A program made the position numbers and the translations under genes. The notes beneath the pieces were generated by a model. That model was not told the DNA's origin. It was given only the letters and a program-made list of their open reading frames with translations, and made no database searches. Below, piece after piece: positions 8,454 through 9,961 of a stretch of DNA of 32,184 bases (position 1 is its first letter; every line of letters begins with the position of its first letter). The stretch is from Alphaproteobacteria bacterium (lineage in GTDB: Bacteria; Pseudomonadota; Alphaproteobacteria; Rhizobiales; Xanthobacteraceae): NCBI GenBank assembly GCA_005884745.1, contig VAZU01000049.1, forward strand, positions 1 to 32,184, read 5' to 3'.

Positions 8454-8479
8454 AACGCGGGGCGGGCGCCCCGGGTTGC
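8454..8479 (-). promoter_or_regulatory. near-consensus EcfG-type promoter (GCAAC-N17-CGTT) upstream of the Host_attach gene
   Basis: Plus strand reads AACG(8454-8457)-N17-GTTGC(8475-8479). There is one mismatch in the -35 element. It sits 34 nt upstream of ATG 8419. Confidence 0.25.
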
Positions 8480-8523
8480 CCGCTCCCGGCGGGACCGAAT
8501 GCATGCATGCCAGGACTTTCGCC

Positions 8524-8548
8524 GGAACTTGGGGCTGCCTTTGGCGTT
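8524..8548 (+). promoter_or_regulatory. EcfG-type (general stress response) promoter, exact GGAAC-N16-CGTT, upstream of the ECF sigma gene
   Basis: GGAAC 8524-8528, 16-nt spacer, CGTT 8545-8548. It lies in the 332-bp divergent intergenic region, 203 nt upstream of ATG 8752. Confidence 0.65.
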
Positions 8549-8751
8549 GGCGACCAGCGTCGAGCGGTCTCCACGGGCTCGCGCCGGCAGGGCCGCGGCG
8601 AGCCTCGAGGCTTCACCGCGGCGAGGATTGGCCTGCCCGGTGCGGCAAGCAACCGCACCGACCCCGTCGGGACTGCCAGCTGCCCGCAATTTTCGGTGAT
8701 CGCCGCCAAGAGCGCGATGCGTGTCAAGCAACCCAGGTCCTGGAATCGCCG

Positions 8752-9456
8752 ATGAGTAACGGCAAAAAGCACCGCGCGGCATTCCACGCCCGGGACGCGC
8801 GCGAGCCGCGCTCCGCCGCGCGGGAGGGCCGCACCGGGCCGCCGCCGCGCGATCCGCGCGTGCAGGCCGGGCGCATGGCTCAGCCGGCCCGGAACGCCCC
8901 ACCCCGGAGCGACCAACTCGATGACACGATGCGGGACGCCATGCTCGGCGCGGTGCCGCGCTTGCGCGCTTTCGCCATTTCGCTGTGCGGAAACGTCGAC
9001 AAGGCCGATGACCTCGTGCAGGAGACGCTGCTGCGCGCGCTTTCCCACATCGAGCAGTTCGAGCCCGGCACCAACATGCCGGCTTGGCTGTTCACGATCC
9101 TTCGCAACCTGTTCCGATCCGATTATCGCAAGCGCCGCCGCGAGGTCGAGGACGACGACGGCTCCTATGCGGATACCCTGAAGTCGCAGCCCGAGCAGTC
9201 CGGCCGGCTGGAGTTCGAGGAACTCCCCGGCGCACTCGCCAAGCTGCCGCCGGACCAGCGCGAGGCCTTGATCCTGGTTGGAGCGTCGGGCCTCTCCTAT
9301 GAGGAGGCGGCGCAGATCTGCGGCTGTCCGATCGGGACGATCAAGAGTCGCGTTAATCGCGCACGCGGGCGGCTGGCGGAGCTGTTGTCGATCGAAAGCG
9401 TCGACGACCTCGGGCCCGATCAGACCATGCGCGCGGTGCTGGTGAACGAATGTTGA
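8752..9456 (+). CDS. ECF-type sigma-70 family RNA polymerase sigma factor, EcfG-like; start uncertain (8752, 8875 or 8929)
   Basis: Region 2 is [13 protein letters not shown]...[24 protein letters not shown]. Region 4 is [44 protein letters not shown]. Third-position GC is very high from 8752 onward (52 of 60 codons counted) and lower upstream, which favours the 8752 start. Confidence 0.85.
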   Translation: [234 protein letters not shown]

Positions 9457-9502
9457 GGCACCATATTCCCGTCGAGGGCGTGCGTGGGGGAGCACGAAGG
9501 TC

Positions 9503-9961
9503 ATGGGCCGTGGTTACGGGCGGTTTCGCATGAGCCAATCCGATCCAACGGCGGACTCTGGACCCGAGCTGTCGATCGCCACCGACAAAGTCTGTTTCAT
9601 CGTCGTCAAGGCACGCGAGTTCGACGCCAAGGATCTGGTTACCGAACCGGATCCCGCCTCCAATCCCACCGACGACCGGATGATCTCGGTTCTGGAGGAT
9701 CACAAGGACGATCCGGTATACCGCGAGATTACGGCTTTCATCGGCGCTTTGAGCGAGGACGAGCAGATCGATCTCGTCGCTCTGGCCTGGCTCGGCCGCG
9801 GCGACGGCGGAATCGAGGATTGGTCCGAGCTGCACGGCCAGGCAGCGAGCGAGCACAACCGGCGAACGGCGCAATATCTGCTCGGCCTGCCGCTGCTGCC
9901 GGACTATCTCGAGGAGGGTCTGTCCCTGTTCGGCGAGTCGTGCGAATCCTACGAGGCCTGA
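9503..9961 (+). CDS. DUF3775 domain-containing protein (acidic, 152 aa)
   Basis: Translation ELSIATDKVCFIVVKAREFDAKD...NPTDDRMISVLEDHKDDPVYREITAFIGALSEDEQIDLVALAWLGRGDG...YLLGLPLLPDYLEEGLSLFG matches the DUF3775 pattern. GGGGAG lies upstream. It starts 46 nt after the sigma gene stop on the same strand. Confidence 0.8.
   Translation: MGRGYGRFRMSQSDPTADSGPELSIATDKVCFIVVKAREFDAKDLVTEPDPASNPTDDRMISVLEDHKDDPVYREITAFIGALSEDEQIDLVALAWLGRGDGGIEDWSELHGQAASEHNRRTAQYLLGLPLLPDYLEEGLSLFGESCESYEA

Follow-up and report, generated by a model that had tools for sequence, protein, structure and literature searches.

The 32,184-nt contig VAZU01000049.1 from the Xanthobacteraceae (this whole stretch is referred to as the window, and all coordinates follow its numbering) carries an EcfG-family, ECF15-type sigma factor gene at 8752..9456 on the + strand that stands apart from nepR and phyR and is followed by a gene of the DUF3775 family. 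The questions raised by this locus are whether the gene is an extra copy of EcfG or the primary one of its lineage, how it is switched on, and whether DUF3775 serves as its regulatory partner. From the comparisons described here, the gene is best read as a non-canonical (orphan) EcfG paralogue of an uncultured Xanthobacteraceae lineage, with a probability of about 0.7. An initial annotation of the same DNA had proposed either an autoregulated EcfG paralogue or a second-tier sigma factor of the general stress response; this is still the best reading, and the EcfG type, the orphan state and the conserved promoter box on which it was built were all borne out.

The open reading frame (ORF) of the sigma factor extends over 8476-9456 (+) and holds both of the peptide strings, from regions 2 and 4, that had been singled out as EcfG-like in the initial annotation. 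Its in-frame ATG codons are found at 8752 (giving a protein of 234 amino acids (aa), and the start used on public contigs, P0001), 8875 and 8929. The protein matched the Pfam families Sigma70_r2, Sigma70_r4_2 and PhyR_sigma2, all above gathering scores (45 bits for PhyR_sigma2 against a cut-off of 27 bits), and the best NCBIfam model was the equivalog PRK12540, which it matched at 308.6 bits (cut-off, 307 bits). Region 2, which binds core RNA polymerase and the -10 element, was located at 8956..9141 (+; residues 69-130) and region 4, which binds the -35 element, at 9217..9375 (+; residues 156-208); Pfam gave no domain in the protein beyond regions 2 and 4, as in the group IV architecture. The best match in the PDB was 5uxx_A (E = 3e-51), possibly from a Bartonella EcfG-NepR complex; a literature search on this entry returned no relevant paper.

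Assignment to EcfG/ECF15 was made by proxy, through orthology to the sigma factors of canonical loci. In a genome scan with the sigma factor as query (one genome per species), 79 of the best 80 loci, each from a different metagenome-assembled genome (MAG), were canonical phyR/nepR-ecfG loci, and their sigma factors, together with those of L001-L005, were 74-82% identical to the window protein. For two homologues of ~80% identity, P0061 and P0084, the sigma factor gene lies immediately 3' of one for NepR and is divergent from one for PhyR. The sole locus among the best 80 with the arrangement seen in the window was L014, whose sigma factor was 94% identical (tblastn). Judged by its identity to the sigma factors of canonical loci, the window protein is a genuine EcfG-family (ECF15-type) protein, its nearest relatives being these canonical-locus sigma factors and not members of a non-EcfG group. 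A 27-residue segment of region 2 was near-identical to canonical EcfG in the alignment, and the recognition helix of region 4, GT(I/V)KSR(V/L)(N/S)RAR, was almost invariant in orphan and canonical sequences, so that the promoter specificity of the orphan sigma factor is expected to be the same as that of canonical EcfG.

The lack of adjacent nepR and phyR genes, part of the initial annotation, was found to extend to the whole window. When the PhyR and NepR of a canonical locus were used as tblastn queries, no match was obtained anywhere in the 32 kb, and a NepR hidden Markov model (HMM) built from 79 sequences and run on six-frame translations gave a best E value of 1.3 around the sigma factor start and of 4.1 over the whole window in six frames, compared with 8e-27 for the positive control. 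The canonical arrangement, in which nepR lies immediately upstream and phyR is divergent, is thus not that of the window locus, and nepR and phyR are also absent beside the sigma factor gene in the orthologous loci L010, L014, L174, L176, L177 and L181.

The orphan loci compared were window/L094/L095, L006-L009, L010-L013, L014, L096, L174/L175, L176, L177/L178 and L181, and their sigma factors formed a coherent group of proteins at 83-100% identity to that of the window. When compared with 71 distinct canonical EcfG sequences, this clade was set apart at 24 diagnostic positions. The clade substitutions S61Q, F117L, R118P, F140L and A152P (numbered from the Met encoded at 8875) fall at positions that are also conserved in PDB 5uxx_A, and clade-specific substitutions of this kind may alter partner binding. 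Synteny with OtsA, UDG and GSDH genes is retained around the orphan sigma factor gene across lineages. On these sequence comparisons, the orphan clade is a distinct orthologous group.

Members of the orphan clade further carry an N-terminal extension that is missing from canonical EcfG. In the window protein this is a basic, Arg/Pro-rich stretch of ~59 aa with an isoelectric point (pI) of ~11.6 (8752..8928, +), identified as orphan-clade specific by alignment. Across the clade the extension is variable and fast-evolving, with a length of about 45-60 aa, and no Met is present at the canonical start position; in the sublineage of the window, the sequence MSNGKKHR and one 11-residue motif are conserved. 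A remnant of NepR in the leader or in the N-terminal extension was considered and rejected, neither the six-frame NepR HMM nor a profile-profile comparison with hhalign being significant; for the extension, the HMM gave E values of about 0.1-1.7, over the low-complexity part only, and hhalign a probability of 0.06%. Two sequences from short contigs, P0029 and P0032, combined the orphan-type extension with canonical-type region 4 residues and could be recombinants or assembly chimeras.

A pair of genes for an ElaB/DUF883-like protein and a small membrane protein was also observed around sigma factor loci of both kinds (L010 9440-10270, L177 6182-6997 and L001 4067-4839). The pair adjoins phyR in canonical loci and the orphan sigma factor gene in lineages without DUF3775, and is not found in the window. 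Identity among the ElaB-like members was no higher than 25-33%, no match could be detected between the membrane-protein members, and the recurrence of the pair could reflect either a segmental duplication or merely shared regulon membership.

Upstream of the sigma factor gene, an EcfG-type promoter box, GGAAC-N16-CGTT, with its -35 and -10 elements (GGAACTTGGGGCTGCCTTTGGCGTT), is present as an exact match at 8524..8548 (+). It had been noted at this position in the initial annotation, and was found here to be both enriched in the window and conserved in orthologues. The exact N16 pattern occurs four times in the window (both strands), where 0.24 occurrences would be expected, and a count of four was not obtained in any of 100 shuffles. 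Each orphan sigma factor gene examined has an exact N16 box on its 5' side, with six different spacers (the versions of window/L094/L095, L014, L176, L010, L174/L175 and L177/L178). The elements of the box are conserved exactly while the spacer and flanks diverge among the orphan loci, which argues for a functional box. The distance from the box to the ATG is 225-240 nt where the long ORF was called, and 337 nt (L176) or 424-442 nt (L177/L178) with shorter called ORFs. In the canonical-locus sample (L001-L005 and L015-L093, with promoter-box counts over 82 canonical loci), GGAAC-N15-17-CGTT was found upstream of nepR in 80/82 and of phyR in 72/82 loci, and can therefore be taken as the local EcfG box; it agrees with the published EcfG consensus GAAC-N16,17-C/GGTT (PMC4814048).

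From the box to the first in-frame ATG, a 5' leader of ~200 nt is predicted by position (8549..8751, +). This leader gave no Rfam match, its folding was ordinary (z = -0.9) and it contained no NepR-like ORF in any frame. Neither a + strand terminator nor a sigma-70-like + strand promoter was found in the leader or in the gap between the sigma factor and DUF3775 genes. A riboswitch or other structured RNA in the leader or in this gap was also considered, and was rejected on the basis of the lack of Rfam hits and ordinary folding z-scores.

Since a conserved EcfG box precedes both the orphan sigma factor genes and the nepR genes, the orphan gene is most likely activated through EcfG-type sigma factors, namely its own product and/or a canonical copy. 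In the mechanism proposed, the PhyR-NepR-EcfG partner switch would free canonical EcfG and the orphan gene would be induced, an RNA polymerase holoenzyme with an EcfG-type sigma factor initiating transcription just downstream of 8548; the orphan sigma factor gene would thus behave as a second-tier or feed-forward gene. The orphan sigma factor would recognize its own promoter, giving positive autoregulation, and would also use other GGAAC-N16/17-CGTT promoters, several of which lie within the preceding 9 kb, so that the response would be amplified or prolonged. DUF3775 would be co-transcribed as a downstream gene of the stress regulon, in this sublineage only. The ~24 clade substitutions together with the basic N-terminal tail suggest that post-translational control has diverged.

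The DUF3775 gene (9503..9961, +; Pfam E = 4.6e-29) encodes an acidic protein with a pI of 4.1-4.3. Its acidity, strand and family are as initially annotated, while the distance of 46 nt given between it and the sigma factor gene is probably too short: most DUF3775 homologues are 138-145 aa in length, and the probable start is therefore the ATG at 9530. The gap between the two genes (9457..9529, +) then measures 73 nt, in place of 46 nt to the ATG at 9503; in related loci it ranges from 41 to 76 nt. No significant hairpin, no intrinsic terminator and no unusual RNA structure was found in the gap, and the sigma factor and DUF3775 genes are probably co-transcribed in the sublineage of the window. 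It is only in this sublineage (L006-L009, L014, L094-L096, L176 and L181) that the two genes are adjacent. When the synteny check suggested with the initial annotation was carried out on related genomes, the adjacency was not conserved, orphan orthologues of 83-91% identity (L010-L013, L174/L175 and L177/L178) being without DUF3775 as well as without Host_attach, MscL and DegP.

The neighbourhood of DUF3775 was further analysed in 80 loci from metagenomes, 77 of which had no adjacent sigma factor gene; the remaining three were all of the window's lineage. Among the 77 loci without an adjacent sigma factor gene, one had a non-adjacent ECF-like ORF ~3.8 kb away and only one had an EcfG box upstream of DUF3775. 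A conserved neighbour of DUF3775 was sought among these loci and rejected: HPF/S30AE, CBS, Hsp20, Usp and outer-membrane protein genes varied from locus to locus, and none was present in more than 13 of the 77. DUF3775 was located as a tandem pair on a 647-kb contig, ~228 kb from the canonical ecfG. In a Xanthobacteraceae genome other than that of the window, the tandem DUF3775 proteins measure 138 and 169 aa (L179 5001-5976, and L180), and their genes lie near those for an S30AE/HPF-CSD fusion, a DUF2267 protein and a metallo-beta-lactamase-fold protein. In alignments drawn from many loci, DUF3775 showed a mean column identity of 60-68%. The AlphaFold (AF2) model of DUF3775 had a predicted local distance difference test (pLDDT) score of 79.3, and a Foldseek search of the PDB with this model returned no match at E <= 0.001 (best E = 1.1) and no anti-sigma fold. 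No relevant papers were found in a literature search on DUF3775.

With an adjacency that is not conserved, no adjacent sigma factor gene at 77/80 loci and no fold match in the PDB, the initial suggestion that DUF3775 is a partner or modulator of the sigma factor could not be upheld. DUF3775 is probably a passenger or a co-transcribed stress gene and not a dedicated sigma regulator, and can best be regarded as a gene with a stress association whose position downstream of the sigma factor gene arose in one sublineage. A dedicated modulator, that is, an anti-sigma factor or chaperone that has replaced NepR and is co-transcribed in the manner of sigma/anti-sigma pairs, would be in keeping with the common strand and the terminator-free gap of 46-73 nt, with the persistence of the adjacency in the sublineage down to ~86-88% identity (L014, L096, L176 and L181), and with the pairing of a very acidic DUF3775 with a sigma factor that has a very basic N-terminal tail. 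This explanation is nevertheless very unlikely: the same basic tail is carried by the DUF3775-less orphan orthologues of 83-91% identity, 77/80 DUF3775 loci have no adjacent sigma factor gene, DUF3775 is found elsewhere with HPF, CBS, Hsp20 or Usp genes, or in tandem 228 kb from ecfG, its high conservation suggests a function independent of a rare orphan sigma factor, and its predicted model appeared similar to no solved structure, anti-sigma factors included. A more elaborate proposal, in which the orphan copy would have escaped NepR by means of its clade substitutions and basic tail and, with a promoter that it recognizes itself, would form a NepR-independent positive-feedback latch holding the stress regulon on after the PhyR signal ends, acidic DUF3775 having been recruited in the sublineage of the window as a new brake that binds the basic tail, is just as improbable.

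Several points weigh against the reading of the gene as an orphan paralogue induced by EcfG-type activity. The promoter is a motif match located ~200 nt before the first ATG, implying a long leader, and the term paralogue is drawn from the clade structure and from precedent. Furthermore, the EcfG proteins of Rhizobium etli each preferred their own promoter when assayed in Escherichia coli, so that a shared box is not proof of cross-activation (PMC3892343). The main rival explanation is that the window sigma factor is the sole primary EcfG of its lineage, separated from a nepR-phyR locus elsewhere in the genome. There is a precedent in Methylobacterium extorquens, where ecfG is unlinked from phyR and nepR and none is present at the phyR locus (PMC4814048), and no canonical locus could be assigned to the same genome in a scan limited to the best 80 loci with one locus per MAG. 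This alternative is considered unlikely, since the canonical arrangement is the norm of the family (79/80 best scan loci), multi-copy EcfG is common, and the departure of the orphan clade from the 71 canonical sequences at otherwise invariant positions, along with the added tail, fits a diverged extra copy better. It is also conceivable, though very unlikely, that the GGAAC-N16-CGTT match is a chance, non-functional one and that transcription starts from an unrecognized housekeeping promoter. The ecfG paralogues of M. extorquens indeed have no EcfG-type promoter and show no stress induction (PMC4814048), and the box of the window is unusually distant from the first ATG, but the exact preservation of the box in six locus versions despite diverging spacers and flanks, the low number of matches expected by chance (0.24 for 32 kb, both strands) and the failure to find a sigma-70-like + strand promoter all speak for a promoter of the EcfG type.

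Extra EcfG copies have been described in other Alphaproteobacteria. More than one ECF15 sigma factor is present in roughly half of the complete genomes from this class (PMC3892343), and orphan EcfG copies have been both documented and found to be frequent (PMC3892343, PMC4814048, PMC7083833), so that the novelty ascribed to the locus in the initial annotation was overstated. For example, R. etli EcfG2 (PF00052) has no nearby nepR or phyR, is positively autoregulated and is partly dependent on EcfG1 (PMC3892343). The window gene likewise encodes an ECF15-type sigma factor without a nearby anti-sigma or response-regulator gene; it differs in that EcfG2 is plasmid-borne with a regulation that was measured, whereas regulation in the window is deduced from the motif, and in that the window sigma factor has the ~59-aa basic N-terminal extension and, in its sublineage, DUF3775 downstream. 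Caulobacter crescentus SigU is the second EcfG copy and acts downstream of SigT, sigU is no longer expressed when sigT is mutated (PMC3892343), and SigU has been proposed to amplify a subset of the regulon (PMC3892343, PMC7083833). Like SigU, the window sigma factor is an orphan EcfG copy, for which dependence on a primary EcfG is here a prediction. SigU is far more diverged from SigT than the window copy is from canonical Xanthobacteraceae EcfG (74-82% identity).

In M. extorquens AM1, EcfG1-6 are encoded by several ecfG genes unlinked from phyR/nepR, only some of the copies bind NepR, and the N-terminal extension of Methylobacterium EcfG, of ~55 aa, was described as NepR-like (PMC4814048). 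The window sigma factor shares with these proteins the lack of linkage to phyR/nepR and an extension of similar length, but its extension is not NepR-like and its gene is preceded by a conserved EcfG-type box. With the canonical Xanthobacteraceae locus (L001-L005, L015-L093), it shares 74-82% sigma factor identity and the GGAAC-N15-17-CGTT box, and it is distinguished by the absence of nepR between the box and the sigma factor gene, the absence of a divergent phyR, the 24 substitutions and the extension. The new features are minor ones, namely a basic tail without resemblance to NepR and the closeness in sequence, at very high identity, to canonical EcfG.

The remainder of the window also contains EcfG-type boxes. 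The region 1-9500 is dense in such boxes, each just 5' of a correctly oriented gene. Exact N16 boxes are present at 2825-2849 (-), before the gene for a 106-aa secreted protein, at 2925-2949 (+), before that for a 113-aa secreted protein, and at 5549-5573 (+), before a DUF3309 gene; an exact N17 box at 5829-5854 (+) precedes DegP/HtrA, and boxes with one mismatch are found 5' of a DUF2188 gene (1485-1509, -) and of the family-4 UDG gene (4029-4053, -). By its motif content, this region looks like a general-stress-regulon island. Further along the window, an exact GGAAC-N17-CGTT match at 16499-16524 (+) lies ~70 nt 5' of an ORF with a transglycosylase-domain hit (16592-17401), and those at 27311-27336 (-) and 29527-29552 (+) are each covered by a long ORF of the other strand and could be fortuitous.

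Divergent from the sigma factor gene, a Host_attach/baeRF_family12 gene was confirmed by Pfam at 7958..8419 (-; E = 1e-41), in agreement with the initial annotation; it adjoins the sigma factor gene only in the sublineage of the window and is absent from L010, L174 and L177. Genes of trehalose and glycogen metabolism flank the putative stress island. These are the 3' part of an OtsA-like trehalose-phosphate synthase gene at 16-633 (-), identified from the Glyco_transf_20 genes that occupy this position in related loci, and from reading of the translation, and a run of alpha-amylase-family genes at 20433-32149 (-) with domain hits to GlgB_N/CBM_48 and Malt_amylase_C/Mak_N_cap.

No new class of regulator is opened by this locus, the DUF3775 lead, which was the main source of the original interest, having failed the comparative analysis. 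If the reading as an orphan paralogue is true, the window would add one more extra EcfG copy placed behind an EcfG promoter, in an uncultured soil lineage of the Xanthobacteraceae. Extra EcfG copies are regarded as a means of amplifying or diversifying the general stress response. Its value would mainly be that of a clean natural example, in which a very high identity to canonical EcfG goes together with promoter conservation and a novel N-terminal tail, and this would make the orphan copy a good system in which to define the residues that decide NepR sensitivity.

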